From: Nemertoderma westbladi
Lineage: Eukaryota; Animalia; Xenacoelomorpha
Reading direction: 5' to 3'
NCBI GenBank assembly: GCA_032718475.1
Contig: JAUCBJ010006459.1
Coordinates: 1-64,000 of the forward strand
Length of the DNA: 64,000 bases
Of this stretch, positions 11,727 to 56,499 are shown piece after piece (positions within the stretch are counted from its first letter, which is position 1; each line of letters starts with the position of its first letter). A program made the translations under genes and the position numbers. The notes under the pieces were generated by a model. It did no database searches and had not been told where the DNA came from. It saw only the letters and a program-made list of their open reading frames with translations.

Positions 11727-11765
11727 CCTAAAACTCAAGACTTTAGGAGTGCCTGATGTCTTAAA

Positions 11766-12297: not shown

Positions 12298-12365
12298 GTA
12301 ACTAAATCAGCTGCCGCCCTAGATAAACTCAATAATCAACTAGCACCGAAATCTGCAGAAGAGAG

Positions 12366-18616: not shown

Positions 18617-18742
18617 TATAGAATTATATTCCCTAAATGCCGTGGATTTTCAAAATTTGATTTTATTCGGATTAACTTTGTAAAGATTGCTTTGAGTTCT
18701 CATTCGTATTGGTTCTATCATTTGTACATCTATCGGTCAAGT

Positions 18743-18829
18743 GGTTCAGTAGCTCAGTCGGTAGAGCGTTGGAAATTATATGTGTAGTAGGTGTTGAGTT
18801 CGAATCCTAGTAAGTGCGAATTATTTTTT
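18743..18829 (+). ncRNA. tRNA-like Pol III cassette in U3 of the A 5' LTR
   Basis: TAGCTCAGTCGGTAGAGC (A box and D arm), GAGTTCGAATCC (B box, 18796-18807) and T6 at 18824-29. There is no acceptor stem or normal anticodon arm. Confidence 0.7.
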
Positions 18830-18879
18830 GTACAGAATTTCAACTCATTTAAATTAACCGCTACAAATTAATTGCATTT

Positions 18880-19060
18880 ATCTGTACCAATGAGACTGTA
18901 GTTATTTGATTGTAACCAATGTCGTGCAAGTTATATATTAGCTGGACCAATAGCTATCTTTAAAACCCCGTTAGAACCCATAGAACAATCGAGAATTTTC
19001 TCGATTGATTGCGGCACAAATTTGCTATATAAAGGTGCGATTTGTTCATTAGTTATTCAC
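18880..19060 (+). promoter_or_regulatory. Pol II promoter of LTR A: three CCAAT boxes, HSE-like palindrome, TATATAAA at 19026-33
   Basis: CCAAT at about 18887, 18916 and 18947; CAATCGAGAA-TT-TTCTCGATTG at 18986-19007; TATA box followed by TTAGTT about 20 nt downstream. Confidence 0.65.
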
Positions 19061-24300: not shown

Positions 24301-27300
24301 CCAGCGAGAAGAGCGGGGAGGATTCTTAAAATTAGAAGATGTGTACCTTTTAATATCCAAGGAGGCAGTAGTAGAAACTAGATCTAACTACACCGACCAG
24401 CACATCGTGGCAGAAGGAATCACACTGCCATCCTCCAACCGACAAAAACCCCAGACAACATCCACTAAGACGGCCACTTACACCACACCGACGGAATCAC
24501 GACAATTCTCGGACGGAGGTAGGGTATCTGCGCCCATTGGGACAAAACAAACGAGACAGCAACTTGGTACCGACTTCAGTGGCTGCCAATACTGCGAGCA
24601 TCTAGGTAAGCGGTATATCGGTCACAAGTTACGAGGTTGTCGACAATTTCGCGAGTTGAACTCGGAAGAACGACGGCTGCAAATACGGCCACTGGACTCT
24701 TGTTGGCAGTGTACGCGACACGGACACGTCCGTAAAGATTGCCCAAATACCGACACTTGTCCATCCTGTGGACGCAACCACGACGGTCTGCTCCACACAG
24801 ACAGCCACACGCCGACAAAACGCTTCGCCAGGGAACACCCGGAAGCAGCAGCGAGATGTGATGCGGCCTATAGAAAACGAGAATCGAAAACGACTCCAAC
24901 CTTCGTGACCCATATTGAGGATTGCTTCTCAGAACAATCCGGATCGTCGGACGAAGAATCAGAAGACGACGAATATTCCAATGGAGACGAACAACCGTCG
25001 ATCGCGCTTCTGACCACTGACCAACTGAAGGGATTCAGTGTAATCCCGATTAAGATCACTGGCACAAAGGGGAGTAAGAGGATCTACGCGATTCTAGATT
25101 CAGCCTCATCTCATAGCTACGTGGATGAAAAGATAGCTGACGTAGTGACGGATCTTAAACAAGGTAAGCATGTCAGTTATACAGTAAGTAGTATGCACGG
25201 ACAGCGTGCAATACCAGTAACACGAGTTAAGTTGGACTTAGACACTCTTCTTCCGAAATCGCAACACAGCGAGAGGGAGAGGTCTTTGTTGCCCTTTAAA
25301 GATCTAACCTTTGCGGCCACGAAGGACTTTAGTAACCTACTAGGTCCAGTGCCGGAACAATCTCTAGAGGACCGTAAGTATTTCAGACACCTTGGTGTAC
25401 CTGAATGTCCTGTCAATTATAGATCGGTAGCAATGCTGATCGGGACAGACCAATTCAACCTACATCAGGTGTGGGAAACCAGACCATCGGCAGTTGTAGC
25501 GGGAAACGCATACGCCTGCAGAACGCCGATAGGGTGGTATACTCGAGCGCCTGTGCGCACACTAGACGTAAGTGACGAGGAAGACGATGTACAGAGTACA
25601 TGTAGTTTATTAACTACAAATTCAATTCATTCCTTCTCACACGACGTGAACCATACTACACTACAGTCGACAAAACATAACAGACGTGTAACTAGTATGA
25701 TAAGTCACAAGGAGCAGCTAATTCACCAGGTGAGTTTAGAACTTGGGGAGAAGACGAGTCAGCTAGAGATTCCATCGACGACAGATGATAGGCTTGCGAG
25801 TCTACCTACCCCAATAACCTCAACAGTGCCCGTCGAGATCGATGATGACGCGTTGAGAAATCATCAGTTGGAACAAGCTGTACTAGACAAGGAATTAACG
25901 GAGAAGACTATCAGGTGGTTAGAACAAGATACAGCTGAACCTGGTAGCTACGAACCTTGTATGTCGGAACAGGAGAAACAATCTCTGAAGATCATGGAAG
26001 ATACTATCCACCAGACGAAAGACGGACATTATGAGGTAGGGATGTTATGGTGTAGCCAAAGTCCTAAACTCATAAACAACTATCCACTGGCTTTAAGACG
26101 TCTACACTCAATACGGCAACGTCTATTAAAGGACGAGAAGGCCCATCTGCAGTACAACACTCAGATGGAGACGTATTTGACTAAGGGATACGCTATCCGA
26201 ATGACTAACCCAGAGATAGAGACTGACCAGACATACTACCTGCCACATCACTATGTGAGACATCCCGACAAACCAGATAAAGTACGCGTAGTCAACGACT
26301 GTGCGGCTCTGTTTGAGGGAATGTCCCTCAATAGTGAGTTGATGGATGGACCAAACATGAATAATTATCTTATGGGGGTGATTATGCGCTTCCGTCAGCG
26401 TCAAGTAGCTTTTACTTGTGACGTTGAAGCGATGTTTCACCAAGTGAGAGCGTTAGAGCGAGACAGAGACAGTTTGCGGTTCCTCTGGTACCCGGAAGGA
26501 GACTTAAGTCTACCACCGGCGACTTACCAAATGCAAGTTCGCGTTTTCGGTGCCAGAGACAGCCCAAATTGCACGATGTACGCCCTAAAGCAGGCCGCTA
26601 GGGATCAGAAACACCTGTATGACCCAGAGATAATTAGGATTGTGGAGCGTGACTTTTATGTAGATGACGGTTTACAGAGTTGCGACACAGTAGAACGTGC
26701 TACAACAGTAGCACATCAATTACGGGACTGCTTAGCGGGCGGAGGTTTTAACCTCACCAAATTCGCCTCAAACAGTGCCGAATTAGTAGACTCATTCGGG
26801 ACGACTGAGCGTGGAGGTGGTGACATAGACCTAGAGTTCGAACCACTACCGACGACTAAGGTGTTGGGGCTCTTTTGGGACCCAAACACAGACAACTTTC
26901 GAGTGAAAGTGAGACTGGACAGTCAAGAGAACACACTGACAAAGAGATCATGCTTGTCAAAGTTGAGCCGATTGTTCGATCCGTTAGGATTCATCAGTCC
27001 AGTGATACTGCAAGCCCGCATTTATATGCGCAGTATATGGAAGGATGGAATAACATGGGATGAGCCGATCTCATCAGACCAAGTGGACTTATGGAAGACC
27101 TGGGAGGCGGAATTATCTTCGCTAGAGGATTATTCCATACCCAGGGTTTACTTTCCATTACAAAGTACATTTCCTGACAACTTGGAACTACACTGTTTTT
27201 CTGACGCCAGCGACAACGGTTTTGGTGTGGCAGCGTACTTGCGCAGACAAGTAGAATCAGACGAGTTCGATGTTTCGCTCATTACTTCTAAGGCTAAGAC

Positions 27301-30033
27301 CATGCCTACTAAGTATATGACGACACCACGAGCCGAGCTACAAGCCGCAACCCTGTCAACCACCATCGTGAACCTCATACAGACAGAACTACAGTCGAGT
27401 TTACAGATATTTTATTGGACTGACGCGACGTTGGTTTTATTTTACATAAACAACGACACACTCGAATTCAAGACATTCGTTGCTAACCGTCGCGCGGAAA
27501 TTCTAGACCGTTCAATAAAAGGGGATTGGCGACATTGTCCCGGACCACAAAACCCAGCTGATATTGCGTCGCGAGGAATGATGCCTGAGGAATTCTGTAA
27601 ACCGGAGAACAAAGAATTTTGGCAACACGGACCCCAGTTCTTGCAGAAATCGACACAAGATTGGCCTCCGTTATACGACAACAAATCTAACACTATCCCA
27701 AAGGACGCCGAAATCAAGAAACCAAAAAAGGGGAAGACAAAGAAAAGGACGACGGCGGCAAAACTCAAGAAAAAACCGAAGGCGAAATGGAAAGATATAA
27801 CTTCAAAGGTCAAGAGAGGAAGACTTGCGAGCCTTTCTACACCAGACATATCGCCAGACGGTCAACCAGACGCGTTACTAGACGGTCAACCAGACATTCT
27901 ACCAGACACTAGTGACATACTGACAAACAGTAAAGCCGCAGTTTCCCTATTGGAGCGGCCTTCTATTGACAAACAACCAGATACGTTACCAGACGTATCG
28001 CCAGACACATTACTAGACAGTCGACTAGACATTTTGTCAGAAACATCACAAAATGTTCTACCGGACATTAGTAATTTATCGACTAACAGTAAAGCCGCAG
28101 TTTCCCTATTGGAGCGGCCTTGTATTGACAAACTACCAATTTTGACACACTTGAGCAACCATAAGCACGGTGAAACCTCATGTATTACAGATGTGGGTAG
28201 TACCTACGCTAATGTAAATACAGGTGTTACTTTGCGCTCAAGAGACATACCGAACTTGCAACCTATGGTGAAACCTGGGATTAATATCGGCAGAAAAATT
28301 AGTTTACCGAAACCCACTGATCCCATAGAGTTCAAACCACCATTAACGATCGACTTACAAAGTACCGACAATCAAGGTAAGAAGACAAAGAAGGACAAAT
28401 TACTTGTAGACCCGGACGGATCAACAGTCAACAAGGGAATACCTACCGGCGGACCCGTGGGCCCTTCTAGTAATTCAAAACCTTCCAAAATCTCAATTGA
28501 CTTACCTGATGACGTCACAAATACTCATGTCGACCGTATTGTAAACCTAACAGATTCTTGGACAAACGCTTGCCGAAAATTAGCGTGGATTGTACGTTTT
28601 GTACAATACGTTAAAGGCAAACGTGACTTTACACGTCGACTTACATTGACTGAGATTGACAGGTGTGAAATTAAATTAATTCGCCATTACCAACTGCGAT
28701 ATTTCGCGCGCGAATTCACATCTATAAATCAAGGTCAACCAATCAAGTCGTCACCAATACTGAGTTGGAGTCCGATTATTTATAATGGCTTAATTTGTCA
28801 TAAATCTCGGCTTCAAAACATTGACTTTAACACAAACTTTAGGTACCCAATAATAATACCGCAACACCACGAACTACAACGTGCAATGATACTGGACGCA
28901 CATCTACATCTGAAACACGCTGGAAGACACCACTGTCTTTCCTACTTACGTACTAGATTTGTATTAATTTGACCCAGTAAAGCATTAAGTTCAGTGACAC
29001 GTACGTGTATTATTTGTAAAAAGGTACATTCTAGAATAGGTACCCAAGAAATGAGTGAACTACCACAAGCACGACTTCAAGCATTCAAACCACCTTTTAC
29101 AGAGACGGGAATTGATTGCTTTGGTCCCATACATACGAAACGTGGACGTATACTAGTAAAACGCTGGGGACTGATTTTCACATGTATGTCCAGTAGGGCA
29201 GTTCACATTGAACGTGTGATGGATCTTTCCACCAACGCGTTTATACTAGCACTGCGGCGATTTATTGCTAGACGCGGACTAGTAAAATGCTTGTACTCAG
29301 ACCAAGGGACAAACTTCGTTGGTGCTCGGAATGAGATTGCTAGAGCCTTTAAGAAATTAGATCATGATCAAATCTCGAACGAACTGCAACCTCACAAGAT
29401 TGTTTGGAAGTTCAATCCTCCAGATAGTCCTTGGAGAGGCGGAGTCTGGGAGAGATTAATTAGATCTATAAAGACAGCCATGGCAAAGGTCATTCCAGTA
29501 AACCACATATTAACAGACGACCAACTGACAACATTGTTGAAATCGAGGCAATACTAAATACTAGACCAATAGTATTAGTACCCGATGACAAACAATCTCA
29601 ATTTGCTTTAACACCAGCACACCTGCTAATGCAGGCACCGACTACTTTGACGCCGATTTCTATTCCAATAGAAAGCGACAGCTACGGTAGAAAAGCGTGG
29701 AAAATCACGCAACTACTAGCTAACAAATTCTGGGAAATATGGCAAAACCATTATTTGCCCTCTATTTCTGCCAGAACAACTTGGTACAATAACACCCGCG
29801 CATTAAAGCCGGGAGATCACGTGCTGTTGGCAGAAGTGAATCTAAAAAGACGCTTCTGGATAACAGGTGTAATTTTAGCCACACATCCATCTATGGATGG
29901 AGTGACAAGAACTGTGACGGTACGGACAATTGACGGTCGTACAGTAGACAGACCGACTCAACGTCTCGTACTTCTTGAAGAGACTCGTAACGAGTCTGGA
30001 GACTACAAATCTCCACCTAATACTAGTAAATAA
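21341..30033 (+). pseudogene. A gag-pol polyprotein (Gag, PR, RT, RNase H, IN); nonsense at 28970 and 4-bp deletion near 29535, both in the integrase region
   Basis: A 2543-aa ORF plus two downstream pieces. Motifs: ILDSAS, FYVDDG, FSDAS...RAEL...WTD...NPAD, H..HAG..CIIC, DCFGP, SDQGTNF, GGVWERLI and a GPY/F-like tail. The lesions are defined by comparison with A'. Confidence 0.95.
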
Positions 30034-30700
30034 TTAGGAGTTTACAAATAGATTTCCACGTACCTGTACACTGTAGTAAGGACAGCGGTGGGATTCCATT
30101 GTCTTTATATGTGAACATTGAGGGTAGTACCCTTATGTGTCACATAGGAGCGGGATTTGTAGGTATAAGAAATGTAATTCTACTTGGAACTCACAATATT
30201 GAGACATTTTTGAAATTTTAGACAATCCATTTGGATTTGAAAATTTTTAAAAATTTTCTCCAGTGAATAGATTTCAGGGTACAGTCGGGTGGAACTTAAA
30301 ATTAGAGAAACAAGAGAGGAAGACTTGCGAGCCTTTCTTAAAAAAAAAATTTTTTAATTAAATTTTACACGGTCTTGTTTCAATAAGTTACGTCGAAATA
30401 GACTCCCCTATATTTATTACTAATTCTTGATTGCTTATTTTCTGATAATAGTTTGGGATCAAAAGGTGAGTATTTTAGACTCACAGCCAGTTTAGCCCAA
30501 ATTCGTTTTTATTTCGGCAAAAAATTTTAGATAAGAAGCAGCGTGTCATTAAAGAAACCTTAGATCTTAGGCTATGGGTAGGAGGTTAGAGCGTTGTCGA
30601 AGCCCAAAGGGCAGACGAAACTCTCACGTCTCCTCACAACTAACTACAAACTCTGTTGTATTCCCTCTAGTAGTAATGATTATGTAACTACACCCTAATT

Positions 30701-33700
30701 ATGGAGAAAGGGATACAAGGAGAGCCGAGATGGGGATATGATATCCAAGAGGAGGCAGCAGCGCCATTCGAAAGATTTGGAGCCAAGGATTATACTATAT
30801 TTGGTATAAAAGAATTATCGGAAAGTACAGCGAAACTCGTGAGAACTAAATATGACTCGAACGTATTAAAGAGAAGGCAAAACGCATTAAACGAAAGAAT
30901 CGAAAGTTTGCGCCAAACCTTCAACGAACTTTACCCGTACGATGCTTTGTGTGATACGGGAGACATTAGCGAAGACCCCGATACTGAAATTAGTCGTTTG
31001 TATCATACCATGCAATACCTAAAGGCGCATGAACCTATGCCCGCGGTACGCGATGAATTCGATGGAATGCATCTTTACAGACGAACTCGAGGGGACGATA
31101 GAGAAACCAAGGAAGCATTTTCAGTTTATAAACTTTATTATCAATGCGGTTCTTGTATGCGCGAACAACGAAATGCGATTCCGATGCGTTTGAATAAGGA
31201 AAATCCCGAACCGATATTGGCGAGGTGTTCGAATCATCAACAACTACGCTACCAGGAAGGAGGGTATCCTTTATCGAATCCATATCATTCATTTGCTATG
31301 ACCGGACCAAAGGCGGGAGAAACTGTCATTTACCCACCTAAGGTTGTTGAACCCGATGTATTTGAACTTACGCTGGACGAGGCGAATCAGTCAACCCGCG
31401 AAAAGAAAGAAGCTCTTAGCCTATACAGAGCCTACAAGGCTTTCGAGAAAGGTGAGATGGAAGAATGGGGTGGAAGACTCGCGAGCCTACCTTGCCATTG
31501 GACGTCACACGATCAAACTTCAGCTAAGGAGATGACACCGGAAGTTTTCGAGAGCATAAACTTTGCTCAAAACGTTATTCAGAGACTACAGATTGCATCC
31601 CCGGAGAGGCCAAGAGAAATGCAACCGTATAGTACTTCAACTACGAAACCATTGAGTACGACACTCAATTTCCCTATTAGTATACCAGTCCGACAGGATA
31701 CGACGTACGAAATACCCATCGTGGATCATCCAGAAATCATTTCAAACTTGGAGTTTCTTCCTGCAGTTGTTTTCAGCGATATGAGTAAGATATATGATTT
31801 ACGTAGACATATTACTCAAAAGGTCGTGCACAACGTTCCACCTCATATTCAAGATTTCAAGGAACTGGATAGAGCTGGTGCCGACATAGCTCCAAGTAAT
31901 CTGAAAGGATATCTAACCAAGACGATTCGTTTATGGATTGGAACCGGAACCTTCGAGTCGGATACAGATATTGCCGCAGATTGGCGAGGTAAGGTTATTC
32001 GTTTCGATGAGGATAAGGATATAGAGAAGATTTGGCAACCTTCGGAAGAATTGTTGGATGAATGGACTAGGACGTTTAGATCGTTTCAGGAAAACGGTTA
32101 TATGTTTTACGATAACGAGGGCGGCAGTCATCAGCAGAGTTTGACTTCTAAGACTATACAAATTAGAGCGGCGGACGGAGTCCTGCACGTTTTCAGTAGA
32201 CAGAGGAGCGACAAACGAATGCCGATACCTCCAGCGAATACAAAGCGACACCATCTTATCACCGATATAGTAAAGAAGATGGACCAAGCCTGTAATATTG
32301 ACGCTAGAATGCTACCGAAGATGGTAAGAAACATGATTTTAGATAAAACTGTTGTAAAGGTTGGATCAGGAGTAAGGGAGGATTTAATTAGCGACTTCGC
32401 CGGCATGACGGACAGCGATGACCGACTACCGACACCATACGTCGACACTCGACCTCTTATTCTGTGGTCTATAGAACAGGGATATTTTCGTGAGTATAAT
32501 ACTCAGAAGACTGGAACTGGATACATTTCCTACCTGTTATTCAATTGGGATTATAAGGAAAATAAGAGAAACAAGTATATTGAAACTTATGGAGAAGGTG
32601 ATACTCCAGATATGAGTGAGTTTGAATCACAGCTTAAATGGAGAGGATGCATGTATTGGGCTATTACGTCACCTCCAAGAGCGGTCTTACAATATTATTT
32701 AGCGATAGAGTCGTCAGTGAATGTTTGCCTAATCGCCGACATTGTGTCTCGGACTCTCAAAAGACATCCACTTTGTCTCGGAGAAGATCATACGTTCTAC
32801 ATGGAAGGGAGAATTCGTACCGACGTGTTTAGACGATTCCTTGAACCCTTCTACAACTCCGACGCTCAGTGTAATGCCTTTACTCGAGCAGGATTTAGCA
32901 TATTTCGAGACGTGTATCTTCGCTGTGCGGGATCTCTTATCGAAAGACCATCTATGTTTACACTGTTACCCAATGAAGGAGAACGTATCGTGGAAATTAC
33001 GGATGAATCACGGCAGACGCGCGCGCCTATCGGTCACCTTGGTGATGAATTCGAAGTAACTACTACGATCGCCGACGATCCTTTAGAGGAACTTCTTGAG
33101 ATAGAAAGGAACCTCCCGAAGAAATCTCAGACGGAGATTCGACAACTTGAAGCAACAGATGCTATAGTTTGTATACAACCTTCAGAAACCTACCAACCCA
33201 TAGACCCAGATGATTACGATTATAGTGTGGGAGGAAGCGCTCGACCGATTGGAGATCTTATATATGAACGAGTGTGGTACCCTGCGAATACGATGTGTAG
33301 TAAATGTGGCGTCGCTGGACATCATATGGCAAAGTGCAGTGGAAAGCACATTACTACGACTCAGCTAATCTGTGGATGGTGTGGGGATCAAGGGTCTCAT
33401 ACCTTTTATACTTGCTGGAGATTTATGGCCCAATGTACTTATTGCAATATAAAGGGACATCGAGCATCTGAATGCCAACTAAGGGACATACCTTATGAAC
33501 ACGAATCTGTAAAACTCGTGAGGAAGTTATTTGATGAGTGGGAAGATTTAGCCGACGAACATGTATCAGCACAAAGAAGACGGTTTCCGTTGAGAGCGCA
33601 TCTCGGATTTTGGGCGGTAAATCCCCAGACGATGATGTCGGAAGGATATATCTCCGCTATGCCCCAATATGACGAACTTATCGAGGTTGTCGATATTTTG

Positions 33701-34426
33701 CCCCACGACAGCGGATTCCGAGTGGTGCGCGAGTATCTGTTACAAATTCACCCGGATAACAAAAACACGTGGAATTTTCAGAAAGTCGTTAATCGGATTA
33801 CGTATGGTGAATTCGATCGTTTCCGAACTGAAAAGCGGAACAAGGGAGCTTGGTTAACCGTCGCATGGGCGTACCGAGCCGCGTTTTACCACAAACGTAT
33901 ACGAGCGAGCGTATTCGAGGAAGAAGAGGTCCTAGAGGCGACAAATATACCAGCCACTCCGGTTGCGCCGTCTGCACGTCACCCTCGGGAGGACGGGCAG
34001 GGTAGGATCATACGGGTCCAAAAGGTGGGCCAACAATTAAAGAAAATTATTAATGTAGAAGAACGCAAAGGAGTTGAGCCGACTATTCGAGTTACTCGGG
34101 ATACGGTATCACTTCCAAGAGAACCAGTAGGAGGGTCGGGACATACACCAGCTGATCAACAGGGGGCGCAAGCTACTCTTGGGTCTGCGTCGTCCGCTTC
34201 TCGCGCGTTCCCAGACGTTCTACCAACTGTAGTGACGACTGATCGGTCACGAGGAATCGGTCGAGGTTTTGGGATGCTAAATAAACGAATTTGCGAGGAA
34301 ATAGTCGCACCGTCTCTCAACGTCCCAAGTAAACCAGTGACTCGCCCCACAAGTCCCATATCGCGAGCAAAGTCACCTGTGCGCAGTTTTCGAGGACGCG
34401 GCAGGGCTCGATCCACTAAGCGATAA
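30701..34426 (+). CDS. Accessory ORF2 of A (1241 aa): DEDDy 3'-5' exonuclease-like domain plus three CCHC zinc knuckles
   Basis: Intact ORF in the env position. FYDNEG (ExoI DxE), LPKMVRNMILDKTVVKVGSGVREDL (ExoII, WRN/EXD-like), YVDT and QYYLAIE (ExoIII-like). Knuckles: CSKCGVAGHHMAKC, CGWCGDQGSHTFYTC, CTYCNIKGHRASEC. Confidence 0.8.
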   Translation: MEKGIQGEPRWGYDIQEEAAAPFERFGAKDYTIFGIKELSESTAKLVRTKYDSNVLKRRQNALNERIESLRQTFNELYPYDALCDTGDISEDPDTEISRLYHTMQYLKAHEPMPAVRDEFDGMHLYRRTRGDDRETKEAFSVYKLYYQCGSCMREQRNAIPMRLNKENPEPILARCSNHQQLRYQEGGYPLSNPYHSFAMTGPKAGETVIYPPKVVEPDVFELTLDEANQSTREKKEALSLYRAYKAFEKGEMEEWGGRLASLPCHWTSHDQTSAKEMTPEVFESINFAQNVIQRLQIASPERPREMQPYSTSTTKPLSTTLNFPISIPVRQDTTYEIPIVDHPEIISNLEFLPAVVFSDMSKIYDLRRHITQKVVHNVPPHIQDFKELDRAGADIAPSNLKGYLTKTIRLWIGTGTFESDTDIAADWRGKVIRFDEDKDIEKIWQPSEELLDEWTRTFRSFQENGYMFYDNEGGSHQQSLTSKTIQIRAADGVLHVFSRQRSDKRMPIPPANTKRHHLITDIVKKMDQACNIDARMLPKMVRNMILDKTVVKVGSGVREDLISDFAGMTDSDDRLPTPYVDTRPLILWSIEQGYFREYNTQKTGTGYISYLLFNWDYKENKRNKYIETYGEGDTPDMSEFESQLKWRGCMYWAITSPPRAVLQYYLAIESSVNVCLIADIVSRTLKRHPLCLGEDHTFYMEGRIRTDVFRRFLEPFYNSDAQCNAFTRAGFSIFRDVYLRCAGSLIERPSMFTLLPNEGERIVEITDESRQTRAPIGHLGDEFEVTTTIADDPLEELLEIERNLPKKSQTEIRQLEATDAIVCIQPSETYQPIDPDDYDYSVGGSARPIGDLIYERVWYPANTMCSKCGVAGHHMAKCSGKHITTTQLICGWCGDQGSHTFYTCWRFMAQCTYCNIKGHRASECQLRDIPYEHESVKLVRKLFDEWEDLADEHVSAQRRRFPLRAHLGFWAVNPQTMMSEGYISAMPQYDELIEVVDILPHDSGFRVVREYLLQIHPDNKNTWNFQKVVNRITYGEFDRFRTEKRNKGAWLTVAWAYRAAFYHKRIRASVFEEEEVLEATNIPATPVAPSARHPREDGQGRIIRVQKVGQQLKKIINVEERKGVEPTIRVTRDTVSLPREPVGGSGHTPADQQGAQATLGSASSASRAFPDVLPTVVTTDRSRGIGRGFGMLNKRICEEIVAPSLNVPSKPVTRPTSPISRAKSPVRSFRGRGRARSTKR

Positions 34427-34499
34427 AAGGGAGGGCAAGGGTGGACGTAAGACTCGTGAGCATTTCTTATGATTTGTGATTTATTTTGAATTATATGTT

Positions 34500-35060
34500 T
34501 TATATTTAGAAAATTTAGTAAAACTTATATTTTATATTTGTGCTTATTCCGAACTTATGCAATTTGTATTGTTCCGAATTTATGAAATTTAGAAATAAGA
34601 ACTTATATTTTGTAAAACTTATATTTAGTAAAACTTATATTTTATATTTGTGATTATTCCGAACTTATGCAATTTATATTATTCCGAACTTATGCAATTT
34701 ATATTGTTCCGAATATTATGCAATTTATATTTTATGAGCAGTATTACAGTGAAACAGAAAGTAAGGGTAGATGGAAGACTCGTGGGCCTTTCTTATAGTT
34801 TCATTTGTAAAGTGTTATTTTGTATTTAGAAAGTTTTATAGTCAGAAATTTGTGCTTAGAAAGACTCATATTTGTAATTATTCCAAACTTATGCAATCTA
34901 CATTTAGGCACGAAAGTATTTGTAATTACTTGAATTTATGCAATATTTGAGATGCAATAGTAGATGGAAGACTCGCGAGCCTTTCTTATTGTTTTCATTT
35001 ATTTGTATTTGTAATTGTTTGAATTTATGCAATATTGAGATGCAATAGATTTATATTGGT
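34500..35060 (+). repeat. AT-rich degenerate repeats (TTCCGAACTTATGCAATTTATA) in the 3' UTR of A
   Basis: About 8 visible variants of GAAyTTATGCAAT; also present in A'. Confidence 0.8.
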
Positions 35061-35280
35061 GAATTTAATTTAGATTTATATTGTACTTACTTAGTAAAGC
35101 CTTAAATACGTAAAGTTTGAATTTGTAATTATTTTGTATCGAATCATTACGTAGAAAGGAAGTATTGTTTGAAATTTAATTGTAAATATGTAAGTACGCC
35201 CTAAGTATTCTATAGTTTAATTGATTATTGGTGAAAACCGTATATTTTATGCACGATAATATCCTGTTTTCATGGAGCGG

Positions 35281-37204
35281 TATAGAATTATATTCCCTAA
35301 ATGCCGTGGATTTTCAAAATTTTATTTTATTCGGATTAACTTTGTAAAGATTGCTTTGAGTTCTCATTCGTATTGGTTCTATCATTTGTACATCTATCGG
35401 TCAAGTGGTTCAGTAGCTCAGTCGGTAGAGCGTTGGAAATTATATGTGTAGTAGGTGTTGAGTTCGAATCCTAGTAAGTGCGAATTATTTTTTGTACAGA
35501 ATTTCAACTCATTTAAATTAACCGCTACAAATTAATTGCATTTATCTGTACCAATGAGACTGTAGTTATTTGATTGTAACCAATGTCGTGCAAGTTATAT
35601 ATTAGCTGGACCAATAGCTATCTTTAAAACCCCGTTAGAACCCATAGAACAATCGAGAATTTTCTCGATTGATTGCGGCACAAATTTGCTATATAAAGGT
35701 GCGATTTGTTCATTAGTTATTCACTTCTACTTCACAGATTATCTTATCAATATTCTGTTGTGCTTAGTTTATTTCAGATTACATTGTACATATTATTATA
35801 ATCTTCTGTAATAAAGTCAGAATATTCTCTCAGCTTTTCTATCTGTTTTACTATGGATTCACTACGGTGAACAAACTCAGGGACAGGATGGCCGGCTAGA
35901 GATCGGGCCGCAGCAATGAACGGGAACATCACGGGAATGTAGACGAGAGACAACCCGCAATACCATTTAGAGTTATTCGCCCATCGCCTGAAAGGTTAGA
36001 CAGCGTTCGATCCTTGCTACCTAAGTGTAAGACCAAAAGATCAAAAGGTAGACGTAGTGACACGCTGTAAGCCCAAAATTACATCATAGGGACTGTACTG
36101 TCTTGATTCAGGAAAACCCACAGTAGACCTTCACATTCCTACGGGGGGGGGGGGGGGGGGGGAGAGAGAGCGCAGGCAGATACTAGTACGCAGATAGGAC
36201 GTAGGCACACCGGTACAAGGCATACACATTGGTTAGGGTGCAGCAAACTGTACGCTTAACTCTTGCTAAGTACAGGTGCGTGTGCGACTATTTGCAGTAC
36301 GACAGTGTCCATTACATCAGAACTTGTAGGCTAGGGGGTTGCTGTGTTTTTACCTGAATTGGGATTGTACCGTTCGGGCGGTAGGGCAGTTTACGTACTA
36401 GGCGCAAATAAATTGAGGCTATCAGGGATATACTAACATCTACCGTGTCCCCGCCAACGCCCTAATAGGAAGTTACCCGGACTACCTGGGTGACTAAAAT
36501 TCTAGATAGGAGCCAGGATAGCTATTAGTACCTGTACGCCTACAGTAGTAAACTAACACATCTCTTCTTAGTATCAGGGACCTGGTACCTAAAATTGCCG
36601 AATTCTGGGCGTAGTATTAACCTTATGCCTGAATTTGAGTCCTGGAAATACGCAAGAGGGGAAGGAACCTTATCATTCGTGAGTATTGGACCTACAAGTT
36701 ACAAAATTAGAATATTCGTAAATGCACACCGTACCCAGTAATTATATATGTGAAGGAGCAAAACTGTTTTGACCGTTCAGAATTAACACGCGCGTTAGAA
36801 ATTATTTACACCTCGAAATATATAAAATTAACTTTTGTCCGTACTGTGCTTTGCCCGCTAGTTAGACATCTCCAAATCTCTGCCTGTACCTAGCTAGCGT
36901 CTCTTTGCCCAACCATATAAATCACACCGCGGCAAGGTATACGAGCCTCTTAGTCCGTCAGTGAGTCAGCCTGATTTTAGGATTCGCTGCGCGGGATTTT
37001 GTTTTATCGAAGTTTGTCTGCTCGTAGACTGTTTTCTGCCTCACCGGTTATAAGAGATCGATACTGCAATATATTCGCTTACTTAGTTTATTGTTTTGGT
37101 GAGAAGGTCGGATTTATGATTTCATTTACAAACTTTACAGTAGGATATTGCAGGTATTGTTACCGTCTCTTCGCATAGTAGGAATAGGCGTATCTCTTCA
37201 ATTA
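35281..37204 (+). repeat. 3' LTR of A (1924 bp), preceded by short PPT GGAGCGG; tRNA-like cassette at 35407-35493
   Basis: Direct repeat of 18617-20530. Confidence 0.95.
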
Positions 37205-37209: not shown

Positions 37210-39395
37210 AGATGAGTGGGACGTAGAGGTACCAGAGGAAATCAAGAAACAGTGGAGCAAGTGGACAGGAGACTTGGAGAAGATGGGAACATACAACATG
37301 CCACGGGTGTATGTTCTCCGACGCGTCGTTGGAAGCGTACGGAGCGGCACTCTACTTAGTACAACGAAAAGGGGCTCATAAGCCAAGGCTAGCCTTTAGC
37401 AAAGCAAAGTCAACGCCGCCAGACTCAGCATCTGTTCCCAAGTTAGAATTGACAGCTGCGAGACTAGGAGTAAGAGCCACAGCCTACCTAGTAGATACTA
37501 TTCCCAACATAGTGGAGACACACTACTGGATGGACTCCATGGTAGTGCTCGGTTGGCTACACAACGAAAGGACGAGATATCCGATATTCGTCGCGAATAG
37601 AGTGGACGAAATAAGGGCGAGCACAGAACTGGAAAGGTGGCACTACTGCCAAACAGACGAGAACCCAGCGGACTTGCTGTCGAGGGGCGTGGAACGCCAC
37701 ACTTTCCTGAAGAAGGAAGTATTGTGGCAACATGGGCCACAATTTCTGAGCGATAGGGAGGCCTGGCCGCCGATAAGGAAGGTGGACCCGGGCTCGGAAG
37801 TAGTATCAGAAGGAGAAGAGGGGGATTCAGAGGGAGAAGAGATATACTCCCAGATGGTGAGGGAGATTAGGGACGTGCAACCAGGAAGGGAACTGTGCGA
37901 TAACCCAACGGATAAACTCCTCAGCTACAGTTCTAGTTGGTATAAGACCAAGAAACTAGTAGCGTACTGGAGAGCCTTCGGGAATTTCCTTGCGGGAGTT
38001 GGCAAGGACAAGAAGATCAGGACAACCATAGATCTGGAGGGAGCGGCGAAGGCAGTGATCCGCTATGAACAATGGAAGAACTACGGTGACGAGGTAGAAC
38101 GCGTCGGTAACCAACAGCACCTCCGACGGGACAGCGAGCTGATTACGCTGTCGCCACAACTCAATGATGACGGGATTCTAGTAATGAATTCTAGGGTGGG
38201 ATACAACAATAGCATAGTCGTACCACCGAAACCCATCATCATTCCTACAGGATCGCCAATAGTCCACCAGATTATATGGGACTCCCATAAATCGATATTA
38301 TATGGGGGCACCAACCGAACCCTCACAGAGATAAGGAGGACCTATTGGGTCAAACAATTAAGGAAGAAGGTTAAAGCGGTAGTGGGGCAGTGCCAGACCT
38401 GCCGACGGGCGAAGAAGGAGCGAGCCATACAGGAGATGGCGCCACTACCGGCGAGTAGGGTAAGACAGCACGACCCGCCATTTACGCATTGCGGTGTGGA
38501 CATGTTCGGGCCGATAAAGATCAAGGTGATGCGACACACGGAGAAACGCTACGGTATTATCTTCGTATGCAACAATACGCGGGCGGTAGGGATAGAACTC
38601 GCCCAAGATGCAACCGCATCAGCGTTCATTAACGCCTTAGAAAGGTTTAGGGACCGCAAAGGTGGGACGATCGCAGTGATATACAGCGACAACGGCACCA
38701 ACTTTGTGGGTGCAGAGAGTGAGATGGCAGAGGCCCTGGACATCTTGGAGGGGGAAGAAGTCAAGGCAGCCATGAGGAGACGTCAAGTAAAGTGGGAGAG
38801 ACGGACGCCGTATGCACCACATACACTAGGATGCGTCGAGAGACTGGTGGGCAGTTCAAAGCGTCTAATGACGAAGCTAATGAACACCCACATGGTCACT
38901 GAGGACGTTTTACGGACAGTACTTGCGAAGTGCGAGGGGATCATTAATAGCAGACCGCTATATCCGGAGAATGATGACCCTGAGTCGTTAGACGTGCTGA
39001 CGCCTAGCCATTTCCTGATGGAAAGGCCAGCGACCATCGATATGCGGGGTGTAGACGCAGATGACATACACTCCCGCCAAAGTTGGAAAGTCGCAAAGGC
39101 GATAAGCGCTGAGTATTGGAGGAGATGGGTCGAGGAATACCTACCCACGCTCCATAAGCGAAGCAAATGGAGGAAACCGAACAGGGAGTTAAGAACAGGA
39201 GATCTCGTAATCGTTACGGATGATACTATCATCAACAACCAGTGGCGGTTGGCGAGAGTTGTAGACACCTACTCCGACGAGGACGGAAGAGTCCGATCGG
39301 TAGAAGTGCGGATAGGTGGAAAGATAGGTGCGAAGGACAGAAAAACCTACAGGAGAGCAGTAGGGAAATGCTGTCTTCTAGAAGGGGCACCTTAG
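37210..39395 (+). pseudogene. B pol 3' part: RNase H and integrase
   Basis: FSDASLEAYG, PKLEL, WMDS, NPAD, CQTC, DMFGP, SDNGTNFVG and GCVERLV. There is a frameshifting deletion after PRVY near 37310. Confidence 0.93.
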
Positions 39396-39519: not shown

Positions 39520-40125
39520 AGTAGGTACGCAGTTAGTAGGCAGAAGGTACGTAGTACCTAATTAGTTAGTAGGTACGTAGTACCTAGAGTTAGTTAGTTA
39601 GTCAGAAGGTACGTAGTACCTAAGTTAGTTAGTAGGTACGTAGTACCTAGAGTTAGTTAGTTAGTTAGAAGGTACGTAGTACCTAATCAGTTAGTAGGTA
39701 CGTAGTACCTAGAGTTAGTTAGTTAGTCAGAAGGTACGTAGTACCTAATTAGTTAGTAGGTACGTAGTACCTAGAGTTAGTTAGTTAGTTAGTAGGTACG
39801 TAGTACCTAGAGTTAGTTAGAGAGTTAGAGGGTACGTGGTACCGTTAGTTAGAGTTAGAGGGTACGTAGTACCGTTAGTTAGAGTTAGAGTTAGAGGGTA
39901 CGTAGTACCGTTAGTTAGAGTTAGAGTTAGAGGGTACGTGGTACCGTTAGTTAGAGTTAGAGTTAGAGGGTACGTAGTACCGTTAGATAGAGTTAGAGTT
40001 AGAGGGTACATAGTACCGTTAGTTAGAGTTAGAGGGTACGTAGTACCGTTAATTAGAGAGTCGGAGGGTACGTAGTACCATTAGTTAGAGAAGAGTTAGA
40101 GTTAGAGGGTATGTGGTACCATTAG
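39520..40125. repeat. Tandem array of GGTACGTAGTACC cores with (TTAG)n/(TTAGAG)n spacers between pol and ORF2 of B
   Basis: Directly visible; about 18 cores. Confidence 0.92.
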
Positions 40126-40614
40126 AGAGAGAGGGAGTAAGAGGTAGAAGGGTATATAAGATATAGATATTAGTTAGCAGTTAGTAGCGAGAGGGGGGCA
40201 TATGAGTACAGCTGGGTAAATCGTGTGGCCACACGACGCATACTGCTGTACTGCATAGACCCACAGAGTAGGCCAGAATGTGGATTAGAGAATAGAATAA
40301 TCCATAGGCAGTAGTAAGTAGTAGGACAGTAGAATCAAATTAAAATAGATAAATAAATAGAATAGGGCTGAAAGTTGTGAAATAGTGGCAACATAAGGGA
40401 AGTTATTCTAGAACATAATAAAAGTAACGGACAGAAATTGTAAATTACGCTCATTTACTAGCTTCAAAATTAATTAGGAATAATTTAGGTTAAAAGGCGC
40501 AGTTAAGTAGAAGTAGGCCATTATCGAACTGTACAGAACATCCTAGATACATCACTCATCTGTATTGCGCCTTGGTAAGGCACCACCTTGCAGGTGAGCG
40601 AGTGAACGTTCGGA

Positions 40615-42298
40615 ATGGCGAGTAAGTTGATCAGAAAGAGAAAGGCGGAGTCAGGAGGAAAGGAGATACTGGTGGATTTCACCGAGAGACATCCGGAAGA
40701 GAAGACGAGAGGATACTACGAGAGGTTGGAAAGGGGTCACGCGGCACGAGCGTTGCAGGATCACTTCCGGGAGGCGCACGAACAGCGGCTGGTCGGGACC
40801 TACGGGACCCCGTCGCTAGACAACGCGATCTTCCAACATTTCCACTACGTAGTGAAAGGGGACGAGGCGAAGTTCGGGATTCCGAAGTACCCGAGGGAAT
40901 CACCGAGGAAGGACTGGAAGAGGTTCATAGAGTCCGTCAACAGAGGAGGATATATGATCCTAGATGACGAGGGAACCGTGGAGGACGAAGCGGGTTCGAG
41001 ACGAGGAACGGCAGGGTCGGCCAGGACCATACTCCTACATTTGGCCGCGCCAAATGGGGACATCTTCTTATTCGACCTAGGGACGTATGGGAAGAAGGAC
41101 GGGCCGAAATTAGACCGATTACCGAAAGCGGTACAAGTCTTAGTAAGAGAGAAGTCGACGACGAAAGTGGGATCGGCGATTCGCGAGGACGCGGAGAGGA
41201 TCATCGGTCCGGACGCCACCAACCTCCTGGATATGCAGAAAGTCTTTATGGCTATGACGGCACCGGATGGATTGGGGGTAGTCGGAAACACAGGCCAATG
41301 CGGGGCGGTGGCGATGGGCCAATTATTGGGGCTCGTATGCCACAAACCGATGGACTGGGGGAAGTTTAGGGAAGAATACGGAGCAGAACTAGCGAACTCG
41401 CTAAAGTGGGGAGCGAGACCGGGAAAGCAGGAGGTATATCAATTCCGCAGAGGAGCGATAAAGGTATATCAGAAGCGATATATCCTACAGGAAGACTGGA
41501 TCATGATAAGTTTGCTTAACTTATTTATGACCGTGGTTATCGAGAGGGAACCAGGGGCATTTCTGTTATCGGGATCACCCCTAAGCTACAGGAGAGCCTT
41601 TAAGACGGCCTTTGACGGTCTGGTAGACCACCCGGGGCTGAAGGGTGAGTCGGTATACTATAACAGCCGGCATCTGGTAGACGGGGAGACAGATACACCG
41701 TATCAGAGATGGGAGCAGTTAGAAGCGGATAGACGAGAAGCAAAGGGGACACTACGGACGCGAGTGCGACTGGATGAACGACGAGGAGAAGTTCACAAGG
41801 TTCGAGGAGTGGGCCGACGTCGGGGCCATGACGCGCCAGCGCATGAAGGCCCAGGAGTTTAAGTGGGGTTTCTTCCTTATCAATCAGGAGACTCACATGG
41901 AAATCATAAAGCGGAGGCTACCGTTTACCTACCAAGAGGTAGCAACGGCGGCGTCGTACGCTGGAGTGATGAACACGCAAAGGTATCTGGACAGGTGGAC
42001 GCCAGACAACCGAAGGGAGTTTAGGGATTTCTTGGCGGAGCACGTACCAAAGGCAATGAAAATGATCCTATGGGACGCCACTAGAGGGAGACAACCGGGC
42101 CACTCTGAGGGGCCACCGGCGAAGCGATATCGGGCACTAATAACACCAGCGCCCAAGGAGCCAACGACCGGGATCAGCAGGGAGGTGGCGGCGAAGGTCC
42201 GAAAACAGAAGGCGGATAATGCCAGAGGAACGGTGATAACCAAGAAACGACCCAGGGAAGAGGACGCCAGGGGGAACTATCCCCAGAGGAACAGATAG
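40615..42298 (+). pseudogene. Accessory ORF2 of B: DEDDy exonuclease-like, homologous to A ORF2; frameshifting deletion near 41735
   Basis: GYMILDDEG, LHLAAPNGDIFLFD, RLPKAVQVLVREKSTTKVGSAIREDA and LLDMQ. The second frame resumes with a half knuckle (KQRGHYGREC) and FEEWAD...WGFFLIN, matching A's FDEWEDLAD...LGFWAVN. Confidence 0.8.
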
Positions 42299-43009: not shown

Positions 43010-43541
43010 TGTTAGCTTATTCAATCCCGCTAACACCCCATAAAGTTATAAGCCGATAAGCAATATTGGGAGCCACGAGATTGGGCAATTAACCAACTCG
43101 TGCCATCCCAATAAGAGTGGGAAGGAAGCACACAATAAAGGGTCAGGGGCCAAACCCCTAACCCAGAGAGTACAGGTGGAGTGAACGGGAACACTCCACG
43201 GGGCGCCAACAAGGGTATCAACCAATCAGAGGGGGGCAAGGCATCGATTGAGTAGAGCAATAAGGCCACCGTGCAATATAACCAGTAACACAATGTCAGT
43301 AATTCAGTTATCTCAGTGCAGTGTAGGTTAGTTAGTTTAGATAGGGGAGCACGGGACTTTAGTTACCGTATCCCGCCTTCCGTATATTATACTACAGTCA
43401 TCATATCTATATCTTATACCTATCAATTATTATACACCGAATATCAGAACTCATTCACTATTTCCGTTTACTCTTTATACACGGCGGGGACGCGTAAACT
43501 AAACACCGGATAAATCGGGATCCCTCCTGGATCCCGTCACA
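43010..43541 (+). repeat. 3' LTR of B (532 bp) preceded by PPT GGGGGGGAG
   Basis: Direct repeat of 11766-12297, followed by TSD TTAAA. Confidence 0.97.
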
Positions 43542-52103: not shown

Positions 52104-55100
52104 TTATCGCTTAGTGGATCGAGCCCTGCCGCGTCCTCGAAAACTGCGCACAGGTGACTTTGCTCGCGATATGGGACTTGTGGGGCGAGTCACTGGTTTA
52201 CTTGGGACGTTGAGAGACGGTGCGACTATTTCCTCGCAAATTCGTCTATTTGGCATCCCAAAACCTCGACCGATTCCTCGTGACCAATCAGTCGTCACTA
52301 CAGTTGGTAGAACGTCTGGGAACGCGCGAAAGGCGGACGACGCAGACCCAAGAGTAGCTTGCGCCCCCTGTTGATCAGCTGGTGTATGTCCCGACCCTCC
52401 TACTGGTTCTCTTGGAAGTGATACCGTATCCCGAGTAACTCGAATAGTCGGCTCAACTCCTTTGCGTTCTTCTACATTAATAATTTTCTTTAATTGTTGG
52501 CCCACCTTTTGGACCCGTATGATCCTACCCTGCCCGTCCTCCCGAGGGTGACGTGCAGACGGCGCAACCGGAGTGGCTGGTATATTCGTCGCCTCTAGGA
52601 CCTCCTCTTCCTCGAATACGCTCGCTCGTATACGTTTATGGTAAAACGCGGCTCGGTACGCCCATGCGACGGTTAACCAAGCTCCCTTGTTCCGCTTTTC
52701 AGTTCGGAAACGATCGAATTCACCATACGTAATCCGATTAACGACTTTCTGAAAATTCCACGTGTTTTTGTTATCCGGGTGAATTTGTAACAGATACTCG
52801 CGCACCACTCGGAATCCGCTGTCGTGGGGCAAAATATCGACAACCTCGATAAGTTCGTCATATTGGGGCATAGCGGAGATATATCCTTCCGACATCATCG
52901 TCTGGGGATTTACCGCCCAAAATCCGAGATGCGCTCTCATCAGAAACCGTCTTCTCTGTGCCGATACATGTTCGTCGGCCAAATCTTCCCACTCATCAAA
53001 TAACTTCCTTACGAGTTTTACAGATTCGTGTTCATAAGGTATGTCCCTTAGTTGGCATTCAGATGCTCGATGTCCCTTTATATTGCAGTAAGTACATTGA
53101 GCCATAAATCTCCAGCAAGTATAAAAGGTATGAGACCCTTGATCCCCACACCATCCACAGATTAGCTGAGTCGTAGTAATGTGCTTTCCACTGCACTTTG
53201 ACATATGATGTCCAGCGACGCCACATTTACTACACATCGTATTGGCAGGGTACCACACTCGTTCGTATATAAGATCTCCAATCGGTCGAGCGCTTCCTCC
53301 CATACTATAATCGTAATCATCTGGGTCTATGGGTTGGTAGGTTTCTGAAGGTTGTATACAAACTATAGCATCTGTTGCTTCAAGTTGTCGAATCTCCGTC
53401 TGAGATTTCTTCGGGAGGTTCCTTTCTATCTCAAGAAGTTCCTCTAAAGGATCGTCGGCGATCGTAGTAGTTACTTCGAATTCATCACCAAGGTGACCGA
53501 TAGGCGCGCGCGTCTGCCGTGATTCATCCGTAATTTCCACGATACGTTCTCCTTCATAGGGTAACAATGTAAACATAGATGGTCTTTCGATAAGAGATCC
53601 CGCACAGCGAAGATACACGTCTCGAAATATGCTAAATCCTGCTCGAGTAAAGGCATTACACTGAGCGTCGGAGTTGTAGAAGGGTTCAAGGAATCGTCTA
53701 AACACGTCGGTACGAATTCTCCCTTCCATGTAGAACGTATGATCTTCTCCGAGACAAAGTGGATGTCTTTTGAGAGTGCGAGACACAATGTCGGCGATTA
53801 GGCAAACATTCACTGACGACTCTATCGCTAAATAATATTGTAAGACCGCTCTTGGAGGTGACGTAATAGCCCAATACAATACACGCATCCTCTCCATTTA
53901 AGCTGTGATTCAAACTCACTCATATCTGGAGTATCACCTTCTCCATAAGTTTCAATATACTTGTTTCTCTTATTTTCCTTATAATCCCAATTGAATAACA
54001 GGTAGGAAATGTATCCAGTTCCAGTCTTCTGAGTATTATACTCACGAAAATATCCCTGTTCTATAGACCACAGAATAAGAGGTCGAGTGTCGACGTATGG
54101 TGTCGGTAGTCGGTCATCGCTGTCCGTCATGCCGGCGAAGTCGCTAATTAAATCCTCCCTTACTCCTGATCCAACCTTTACAACAGTTTTATCTAAAATC
54201 ATGTTTCTTACCATCTTCGGTAGCATTCTAGCGTCAATATTACAAGCTTGGTCCATCTTCTTTACTATATCGGTGATAAGATGGTGTCGCTTTGTATTCG
54301 CTGGAGGTATCGGCATTCGTTTGTCGCTCCTCTGTCTACTGAAAACGTGCAGGACTCCGTCCGCCGCTCTAATTTGTATAGTCTTAGAAGTCAAACTCTG
54401 CTGATGACTGCCGCCCTCGTTATCGTAAAACATATAACCGTTTTCCTGAAACGATCTAAACGTCCTAGTCCATTCATCCAACAATTCTTCCGAAGGTTGC
54501 CAAATCTTCTCTATATCCTTATCCTCATCGAAACGAATAACCTTACCTCGCCAATCTGCGGCAATATCTGTATCCGACTCGAAGGTTCCGGTTCCAATCC
54601 ATAAACGAATCGTCTTGGTTAGATATCCTTTCAGATTACTCAGAGCTATGTCGGCACCAGCTCTATCCAGTTCCTTGAAATCTTGAATATGAGGTGGAAC
54701 GTTGTGCACGACCTTTTGAGTAATATGTCTACGTAAATCATATATCTTACTCATATCGCTGAAAACAACTGCAGGAAGAAACTCCAAGTTTGAAATGATT
54801 TCTGGATGATCCACGATGGGTATTTCGTACGTCGTATCCTGTCGGACTGGTATACTAATAGGGAAATTGAGTGTCGTACTCAATGGTTTCGTAGTTGAAG
54901 TACTATACGGTTGCATTTCTCTTGGCCTCTCCGGGGATGCAATCTGTAATCTCTGAATAACGTTTTGAGCAAAGTTTATGCTCTCGAAAACTTCCGGTGT
55001 CATCTCCTTAGCTGAAGTTTGATCGTGTGACGTCCAATGGCAAGGTAGGCTCGCGAGTCTTCCACCCCATTCTTCCATCTCACCTTTCTCGAAAGCCTTG

Positions 55101-55834
55101 TAGGCTCTGTATAGGCTAAGAGCTTCTTTCTTTTCGCGGGTTGACTGATTCGCCTCGTCCAGCGTAAGTTCAAATACATCGGGTTCAACAACCTTAGGTG
55201 GGTAAATGACAGTTTCTCCCGCCTTTGGTCCGGTCATAGCAAATGAATAATATGGATTCGATAAAGGATACCCTCCTTCCTGGTAGCGTAGTTGTTGATG
55301 ATTCGAACACCTCGCCAATATCGGTTCGGGATTTTCCTTATTCAAACGCATCGGAATCGCATTTCGTTGTTCGCGCATACAAGAACCGCATTGATAATAA
55401 AGTTTATAAACCGAAAATGCTTCCTTGGTTTCTCTATCGTCCCCTCGAGTTCGTCTGTAAAGATGCATTCCATCGAATTCATCGCGTACCGCGGGCATAG
55501 GTTCGTGCGCCTTTAGGTATTGCATGGTATGATACAAACGACTAATTTCAGTATCGGGGTCTTCGCTAATGTCTCCCGTATCACACAAAGCATCGTACGG
55601 GTAAAGTTCGTTGAAGGTTTGGCGCAAACTTTCGATTCTTTCGTTTAATGCGTTTTGCCTTCTCTTTAATACGTTCGAGTCATATTTAGTTCTCGCGAGT
55701 TTCGCTGTACTTTCCGATAATTCTTTTATACCGAATATAGTATAATCCTTGGCTCCAAATCTTTAGAATGGCGCTGCTGCCTCCTCTTGGATATCATATC
55801 CCCATCTCGGCTCTCCTTGTATCCCTTTCTCCAT
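52104..55834 (-). pseudogene. ORF2 (exonuclease-knuckle) of A', disrupted
   Basis: Near-identical to 30701-34426, with a GAA>TAA change near 55764 and a 5-bp duplication frameshift near 53880. Confidence 0.92.
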
Positions 55835-56499
55835 AATTAGGGTGTAGTTACATAATCATTACTACTAGAGGGAATACAACAGAGTTTGTAGTTAGTTGTG
55901 AGGAGACGTGAGAGTTTCGTCTGCCCTTTGGGCTCGACAACGCTCTAACCTCCTACCCATAGCCTAAGATCTAGGGTTTCTTTAATGACACGCTGCTTCT
56001 TATCTAAAAATTTTTTTTTGCCGAAATAAAAACGAATTTTGGGCTAAACTGGCTGTGAGTCTAAAATACTCACTTTTTGATCCCAAACTATTATCAGAAA
56101 ATAAGCAGTCAAGAATTAGTAATAAATATAGGGGAGTCTATTTTGACGTAACTTATTGAAACAAGACCGTGTAAAATTTAATTAAAAATTTTTAAGAAAG
56201 GCTCGCAAGTCTTCCTCTCTTGTTTCTCTAATTTTAAGTTCCACCCGACTGTACCCTGAAATCTATTCACTGGAGAAAATTTTAAAATTTTTTCAAATCC
56301 AAATGGATTGTCTAAAATTTCGAAAATGTCTCAATATTGTGAGTTCCAAGTAGAATTCCATTTCTTAAACCTACAAATCCCGCTCCTATGTGACACATAA
56401 GGGTACTACCCTCAATGTTCACATATAAAGACAATGGAATTCTACCGCTGTCCTTACTACGGTGTACAGGTACGTGGAAATCTATTTGTAAACTCCTAA

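Follow-up and report, generated by a model that had tools for sequence, protein, structure and literature searches.

The 64,000-nucleotide stretch of Nemertoderma westbladi DNA analyzed here (the window) contains two BEL/Pao retrotransposon families, A and B, that are alike in carrying a long extra gene between the integrase and the 3′ LTR. This raises the questions of what the gene encodes, whether its two versions share one origin, and what it does for the element. Our reading is that it is an accessory gene located after pol in three deeply diverged BEL/Pao lineages, which combines a predicted DEDDy exonuclease, Cys/His knuckles, and a post-knuckle block (W-G-F block), and which probably trims RNA 3′ ends to the benefit of the element.

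Nested BEL/Pao elements and their extra genes

The window consists of BEL/Pao LTR retrotransposons nested in one another, with element A1 inserted in the pol of element B and a second family A copy nearby. The host range of such elements points to an animal genome (PMC8742986). Pfam detected Pao-type domains of RNase H, of integrase, and of gag in the window. Element B (11766-43541, plus strand) is a young member of family B. Its 5′ LTR (11766..12297; 532 nt, TG..CA) and 3′ LTR (43010..43541) differ at 2 of 532 positions, the target-site duplication TTAAA lies at 11761-11765 and 43542-43546, and a polypurine tract (43001-43009) directly precedes the 3′ LTR. The gag, protease, and reverse transcriptase region of B (12336..18616) is frameshifted and spread over five successive ORFs (12336-18683), whereas its RNase H (PF05380) and its integrase with PF17921 and PF18701 are located at 37227..39395, beyond the inserted A1. 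The Pfam domain order in B pol (PF13650, PF00078, PF05380, PF17921, PF00665, PF18701) corresponds to the Pao-type arrangement PR-RT-RH-IN, and the B reverse transcriptase is 30%–38% identical to 120 BEL proteins. Of note, the near-identity of the B LTRs contrasts with the splitting of its gag-pol, which could reflect sequencing indels or a defective copy mobilised in trans.

Element A1 (18617..37204, plus strand) has LTRs at 18617-20530 and 35281-37204 and a TTGAA target-site duplication. Its extra gene (30701..34426, within the plus-strand ORF 30680-34426; protein P0003) is uninterrupted and encodes the exonuclease domain, three knuckles, and the post-knuckle block, so that a protein is available to assay. 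The second family A copy, element A2, is 5′-truncated and lies on the minus strand; its extra gene (52104..55855, minus strand) contains an early stop and a frameshift. The first-pass annotation had described the two families as having dissimilar LTRs and very diverged Pol, and both statements were borne out: self-comparison of the window gave no match between A and B LTRs, and their Pol identity was 29%–36% depending on the domain. In A pol, RNase H and integrase are separated by a long insertion (27700-28700) that is rich in Lys, Pro, and Asp and contains 159-nt repeats.

According to the ICTV profile, Belpaoviridae have genomes of 4.2–10 kb, LTRs of 0.2–1.2 kb, a third gene that is only env-like, and an 18-nt primer-binding site for tRNA-Arg or tRNA-Gly (PMC8742986). 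The elements described here share with this family the LTRs, the polypurine tract, the gag-PR-RT-RH-IN order, and the domains PF05380, PF03564, and PF18701. In contrast to the profile, A1 reaches 18.6 kb and B, after subtraction of the insert, ~13 kb, the A LTRs are 1.9 kb, no TGG primer site is seen, and the third gene is not env-like; size and an env-like third gene are typical traits of the family and not the basis of membership. An env-like role of the extra gene was ruled out because hydrophobicity analysis revealed no transmembrane-like segment in it (maximum KD19 1.4). The A LTRs have TA at both their start and their end instead of TG..CA, and L016, a BEL/Pao locus without the extra gene, also starts with TA.

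The region 40615-42298 of element B had been presented as a single ORF. It actually comprises two plus-strand frames, P0001 (40615-41862) and P0002 (41723-42298), which are joined at a deletion near 41745. The 5′ part of the gene (40615..41744) contains the ATG, an N-terminal region, and the DEDDy-like 3′-5′ exonuclease domain, and its frame continues out of register to the stop at 41862. The 3′ part (41747..42298) contains the second half of the third knuckle (GHxxxxC), the FEEWAD..R..WGFF block, a basic tail, and the stop. The A protein has three Cys/His knuckles (at residues 873, 898, and 919 of P0003), whereas in the B copy the knuckles are reduced to the second half of the third one, just past 41745. 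The break itself (41745..41746), an internal deletion with a change of frame, was recognized on contigs of other copies. These contigs, matched to family B, came from two public DNA runs (X1 and X3), either of which may be the source of the window itself. Loose contig ends were found on both sides of 41745 (16 + 10 in X1, 14 + 6 in X3), and therefore other copies hold extra sequence at this position and the window copy is internally deleted. Family B was represented by >13,000 contigs in X1 and >5,000 in X3, which indicates many copies of the family, although depth does not equal copy number. Deleted derivatives of the A gene also exist, as contigs of three runs jump ~2 kb of it (30834-32985), including the exonuclease domain.

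The spacer between the pol stop and the start of the extra gene is 1.2 kb in B and 0.7 kb in A. The B spacer includes a block of tandem repeats with units of ~30–62 nt (39531..40144). A pyrimidine-rich run ending in CAG (40583-40593), 21 bases 5′ of the B ATG, is a candidate splice acceptor.

Homology of the two genes and the predicted exonuclease fold

P0001 aligned with the A protein P0003 at 23% identity over 268 columns (E 5e-7). The local score of this alignment was 92, compared with a mean of 41±5 for shuffled sequences, and none of the 300 shuffles reached 92; the same comparison gave scores of 37–46 for five further long ORFs in the window. All exonuclease motifs quoted in the first-pass annotation were located on the plus strand, namely GYMILDDEG (40948-40974), KVGSAIRED (41164-41190), and RYILQE (41476-41493) in B, and GYMFYDNEG (from 32096), KVGSGVRED (from 32357), and YYLAIE (from 32693) in A. 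The shared post-knuckle block is also real, but its A version is looser than had been quoted: FEEWAD (41801-41818) and WGFFLIN (41864-41884) in B correspond to FDEWED (from 33530) and LGFWAVN (from 33602) in A. Compared with A alone, the post-knuckle part P0002 gave a weak match (E 0.013, with 2 of 300 shuffles scoring as high). The block is established by P0007, a relative that was retrieved with a profile of the exonuclease only and that shares 40% identity with P0002 over 70 columns (E 1e-6). P0001 matched the same relative with E 4e-10.

The putative catalytic residues of B are D117 and E119 in ExoI (D-x-E, 40963..40971), D192 in ExoII (the last residue of KVGSAIRED, 41188..41190), and Y289 and E293 in ExoIII (Y-x3-E, 41479..41493), all on the plus strand. 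All 7 aligned sequences share D117, E119, D192, and Y289, which we assign to the ExoI-ExoII-ExoIII pattern of DEDDy nucleases on the basis of the family pattern and of the fold match described below. At the acidic position of ExoIII, A, B, and P0007 have Glu, but P0005, P0008, P0009, L001, and L003 have Asp. The Glu had been proposed as a possible lineage signature, which it is not, as other members of the family have Asp. The protein would be an active two-metal nuclease, although catalysis may be lowered where ExoIII has Glu instead of Asp.

Pfam detected no exonuclease domain in A or B and matched P0007 to PF01612 only with E 0.2, and PDB sequence searches returned no exonuclease. PF01612 clusters of the ESM Atlas were matched at 0.93 (B) and 0.92 (A), with this family on 34% and 50% of the cluster members. 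The model of the B domain itself was poor (pLDDT 43); it had no Foldseek match at E ≤ 0.001, and the match obtained in a wide search was confined to a terminal helix. We therefore relied on the model of P0007, with a mean pLDDT of 41 and 60–85 in its core (residues 31-156). Foldseek returned 61 matches to this model at E ≤ 0.001, and all rows listed were of the DEDD family, with Egalitarian at the top, followed by EXD2, NrnC, RICE1, and RNase D; EXD1 was also listed. After realignment, the Z score was 12.0 for Nibbler/Mut-7 (7jw2; rmsd 3.7, 184 aligned), 11.7 for RICE1 (5v5f), 11.0 for Trypanosoma brucei RNase D, and 10.9 for WRN (2fbx). WRN and DNA-polymerase exonuclease domains were within 1–2 Z of the RNases, and because the scores tie, the fold is clear whereas the subfamily cannot be assigned. 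The extra gene is accordingly predicted, via the model of this relative, to encode a DEDDy 3′-5′ exonuclease fold. It resembles Nibbler, RICE1, EXD2 (6k1d), WRN, Egalitarian, and EXD1 in the fold of the P0007 model (Z 10–12) and in the ExoI-II-III pattern. It differs from these cellular proteins in its low identity to them (10%–20%), in insertions between ExoII and ExoIII, in being carried by an element, and in the added knuckles and W-G-F block.

A parallel in domain layout is T. brucei RNase D (7c42, 7c4c; named CCHC-type domain-containing protein), where a single chain contains a DEDDy exonuclease and, after it, CCHC knuckles. However, this is a cellular enzyme of a protist with 16%–20% identity, the knuckles of the two proteins align weakly (E 0.27–0.42), and common descent is unsupported beyond the two domain families. 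The knuckles of P0007 matched retroviral nucleocapsid with E 1e-4.

Egalitarian is catalytically inactive. EXD1 is also described as inactive (PMC5408684). Since the former is the top Foldseek match and the latter is listed, the extra protein could be a catalytically dead RNA-binding adaptor similar to either of them, which localises or packages element RNA. The ExoIII Glu in A, B, and P0007 would fit such a function, and three knuckles could provide the RNA binding. We regard this as quite unlikely, because all 7 sequences, at identities of 21%–27%, have kept the Tyr and three of the acids, the fourth position remains acidic, and the other branch has the full D-E-D-Y-D set. Structural scores are neutral in this respect, as they separate neither active from dead exonucleases nor RNA from DNA exonucleases.

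Relatives, selection, and history of the module

A profile built from the exonuclease regions of both genes, as the first-pass annotation had suggested, was compared with 1.84 billion proteins at a cut-off of E 0.001. It retrieved five relatives (E 1.8e-5 to 1e-3), all unnamed proteins and none of them a named cellular exonuclease. P0007 and P0008 have the complete layout that is common to the family, i.e., the DEDDy exonuclease, three Cys/His knuckles, and the W-G-F block. The post-knuckle block had been put forward as a mark of the family; it was seen in A, B, P0007, P0008, L001, and L003, and can serve as a marker in searches for the group. Word-based searches with P0001 and with an alignment yielded nothing new, and in IMG/VR one weak integrase locus was detected, but nothing related to the extra gene.

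Three loci (L001, L002, and L003) were detected among metagenome contigs. In two of them (L001 and L002) the homologue directly follows a BEL/Pao integrase, whereas L003 starts inside the extra gene on a contig that has no pol sequence. All three come from one assembly and were therefore counted as one further lineage. None of the 1965 reading frames from 16 other BEL loci matched the extra-gene profile (the best had E 0.07); in five of these 16 both LTRs are present and 0.05–0.8 kb follows the integrase, and several others are too short to judge. The module was not fused to any of the 120 BEL polyproteins, for which the presence of a separate gene is not recorded. Of note, the BEL/Pao elements L005-L020 come from assemblies that are recorded as bacterial genomes, including a Wolbachia chromosome (L010); some of them have both LTRs, and they are probably host contamination.

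These relatives bear on the possibility that A and B each acquired an exonuclease gene from a host in separate, recent events, in which case their likeness would be that of any two DEDDy domains. The exonuclease identity is just 23%–27%, and rotifer elements are reported to have gained such ORFs at least twice (PMC5408684). In contrast, the shared order extends outside the catalytic motifs to a K-x6-10-YG..KW stretch, the knuckles, and the W-G-F block, the identity across all cross-lineage pairs is 21%–27%, and the profile search scored no named cellular exonuclease and no close relative, unlike what is expected for a recent donor. Recent independent capture is therefore very improbable. Because the knuckles and the W-G-F block accompany the exonuclease in the same order and no close host donor was found, we are highly confident in the identity of the gene as described and in a single origin of the module.

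The extra gene is under purifying selection in both families. The B variant set comprised the best 40 of 352 rows, 6 of them outside the gene; inside the gene, 29 of 34 variants were synonymous, compared with 8.9 expected under random placement. Most of this signal came from the 5′ part (27 of 30 synonymous), and the 3′ part contributed only 2 of 4. For A copies (best 40 of 120 rows, 1 outside the gene), 25 of 39 variants were synonymous, compared with 11.6 expected. Between A1 and A2, the extra gene contained 19 synonymous and 13 non-synonymous codons, and pol 52 and 24. Variant sites are shared by descent, so p-values are overstated, but the direction is plain.

The pol trees address whether the carriers form one lineage. 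The 92-row trees included the carriers and those 89 of the 120 BEL hits that have all three domains. In these, FastTree joined the three carriers with support of 95 (reverse transcriptase), 95 (integrase), and 99 (all domains), and it joined them at 99 when ORF-less loci were added (36 rows). The carriers have long branches, and each FastTree run flagged a long-branch warning. A mixture model applied to 24 of those 36 rows joined them at 76/77, and in 78% of bootstrap trees. The sample is unrooted, contains no named superfamily references, and has most of its rows in one group, so three distant carriers may group by default.

An alternative history is that the module arose once and was then passed by template switching from one BEL/Pao superfamily to another, unrelated one, and thus marks no clade. 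Pol identity among A, B, and L002 is 31%–32%, whereas A pol is 37%–40% identical to P0130 and P0017 and 33% identical to the ORF-less L010. The carrier values fall within the averages between BEL/Pao superfamilies (26.5%–39%; Table 3 of PMC3118150). Moreover, a topology that places A with L010 and P0130, a group picked after viewing the tree, had a p-AU of 0.148, which is above rejection, and sharing of DEDDy ORFs between retroelement types has been proposed for rotifers (PMC5408684). On the other hand, all five trees joined the three carriers, and the exonuclease identity (22%–25%) is below that of pol in every carrier pair, so that no recent swap is visible. We consider template switching possible but doubtful. 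Inheritance alongside pol within one BEL lineage is the simplest history, and we lean slightly toward a strict vertical clade of carriers. The module had been called ancient, selected, and clade-defining beforehand; its age and selection stand, whereas "clade-defining" goes further than the mixture-model support and the p-AU value given above allow.

Proposed role and comparison with known systems

Small RNAs or 3′ tails are the substrates of several top structural neighbours, namely Nibbler, RICE1, and trypanosome RNase D. We therefore tentatively favor counter-defence against RNA silencing or tail-triggered decay as the role of the extra gene, by analogy with these enzymes. Since the gene starts well past the pol stop, it would probably be translated from a separate or spliced RNA. 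The three knuckles presumably would hold single-stranded RNA, from whose 3′ end the DEDDy site would remove nucleotides, and activity of the exonuclease on RNA is reasonably likely. In this way, host 3′ marks could be stripped from element RNA, or small-RNA precursors could be destroyed. If such trimming of small RNAs or of 3′ tails does take place, the protein would represent a rare case of enzyme-based counter-defence by an animal LTR element.

Alternatively, the enzyme could serve reverse transcription within the particle, by trimming primer or RNA ends or by editing cDNA 3′ ends. WRN and DNA-polymerase exonuclease domains tie structurally with the RNases, the knuckles resemble nucleocapsid, and both A and B lack the TGG of a primer-binding site beside the 5′ LTR: the sequence after the LTR (from 12298 in B and 20531 in A) continues with GTA, as in L016. 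However, the gene is separate from pol, all 16 other BEL loci lack it, four of five ORF-less elements are also without TGG, and a self-priming match is not general. A role in reverse transcription thus seems unlikely. We considered whether self-priming connects the nuclease with the lack of TGG, and rejected this idea. The B stretch after the LTR has a 9-nt complement at LTR position 349 (8 of 1000 shuffles), but this match was found post hoc in one of seven elements, and the predicted fold pairs the B site elsewhere; the self-complement of A was unremarkable (137 of 1000 shuffles), and ORF-less elements lack TGG as well. No tRNA genes were found in the window.

Exonuclease genes in other retrotransposons offer a comparison with the counter-defence gene proposed here. 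The rotifer elements Juno and Vesta are Gypsy-like, and Malik et al. reportedly noted an exonuclease in nematode Cer elements in 2000. A DEDDy-exonuclease ORF3 is carried by Juno and Vesta, which are LTR retrotransposons of bdelloid rotifers, and by Athena/Terminon (Rodriguez et al. 2017, PMC5408684); as presented in that paper, ORF3 has a DEED set, was gained recently, shows no clear departure from neutrality, and is of unknown function. The same paper cites Malik 2000, yet calls DEDDy exonucleases previously unreported in retrotransposons, and excerpts of PMC5718144 and PMC6338049 refer back to the rotifer case. Like the rotifer ORF3, the gene described here is a separate post-pol ORF of DEDDy type that retains the catalytic residues and lacks a transmembrane domain. 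Compared by description and not by sequence, it differs in its BEL/Pao carrier and in its DEDE or DEDD set, and also in its purifying selection and deep conservation. It has three knuckles, whereas the text of PMC5408684 mentions a Cys-His-Cys motif only, and neither "CCHC" nor "zinc knuckle". The rotifer study left the importance of such genes open, since no clear selection was seen; the present data indicate that the genes matter.

In searches of the main texts of the open literature we found no BEL/Pao exonuclease gene, and a prior note may exist elsewhere. The word "exonuclease" was absent from the main-text portions consulted of PMC3118150, PMC8556966, PMC9094657, and PMC12451622, and the corresponding portions of PMC11662393, PMC10309623, and PMC3985635 held nothing further on such genes. 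Whereas descriptions of the third gene of BEL/Pao elements are limited to an env-like type, the carriers studied here, with their deeply diverged pol, have a conserved nuclease module under selection in its place. The broadest reading is that large BEL/Pao elements in several animal hosts form a deep, hitherto undescribed lineage, defined by an active exoribonuclease-triple-knuckle gene that suppresses RNA silencing or 3′-tail decay, with Gypsy-like elements having reached the same exonuclease-plus-zinc-finger design independently. Taken as a whole, this reading is speculative and rather unlikely.

The remainder of the window contains further repeats. A third BEL family is represented by gag and protease at 59-4265 (minus strand), with ~68% DNA identity to A, where the element is cut by the window edge. 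A decayed gag relic at 45036-46805 (minus strand) is 71%–73% identical to B gag. Tandem arrays with 36-nt and 22-nt units are located at 7842-9121 and 11552-11747, respectively, and a LINE-type endonuclease ORF (PF03372, PF14529) at 47974-49374 (plus strand) adjoins the end of element A2.
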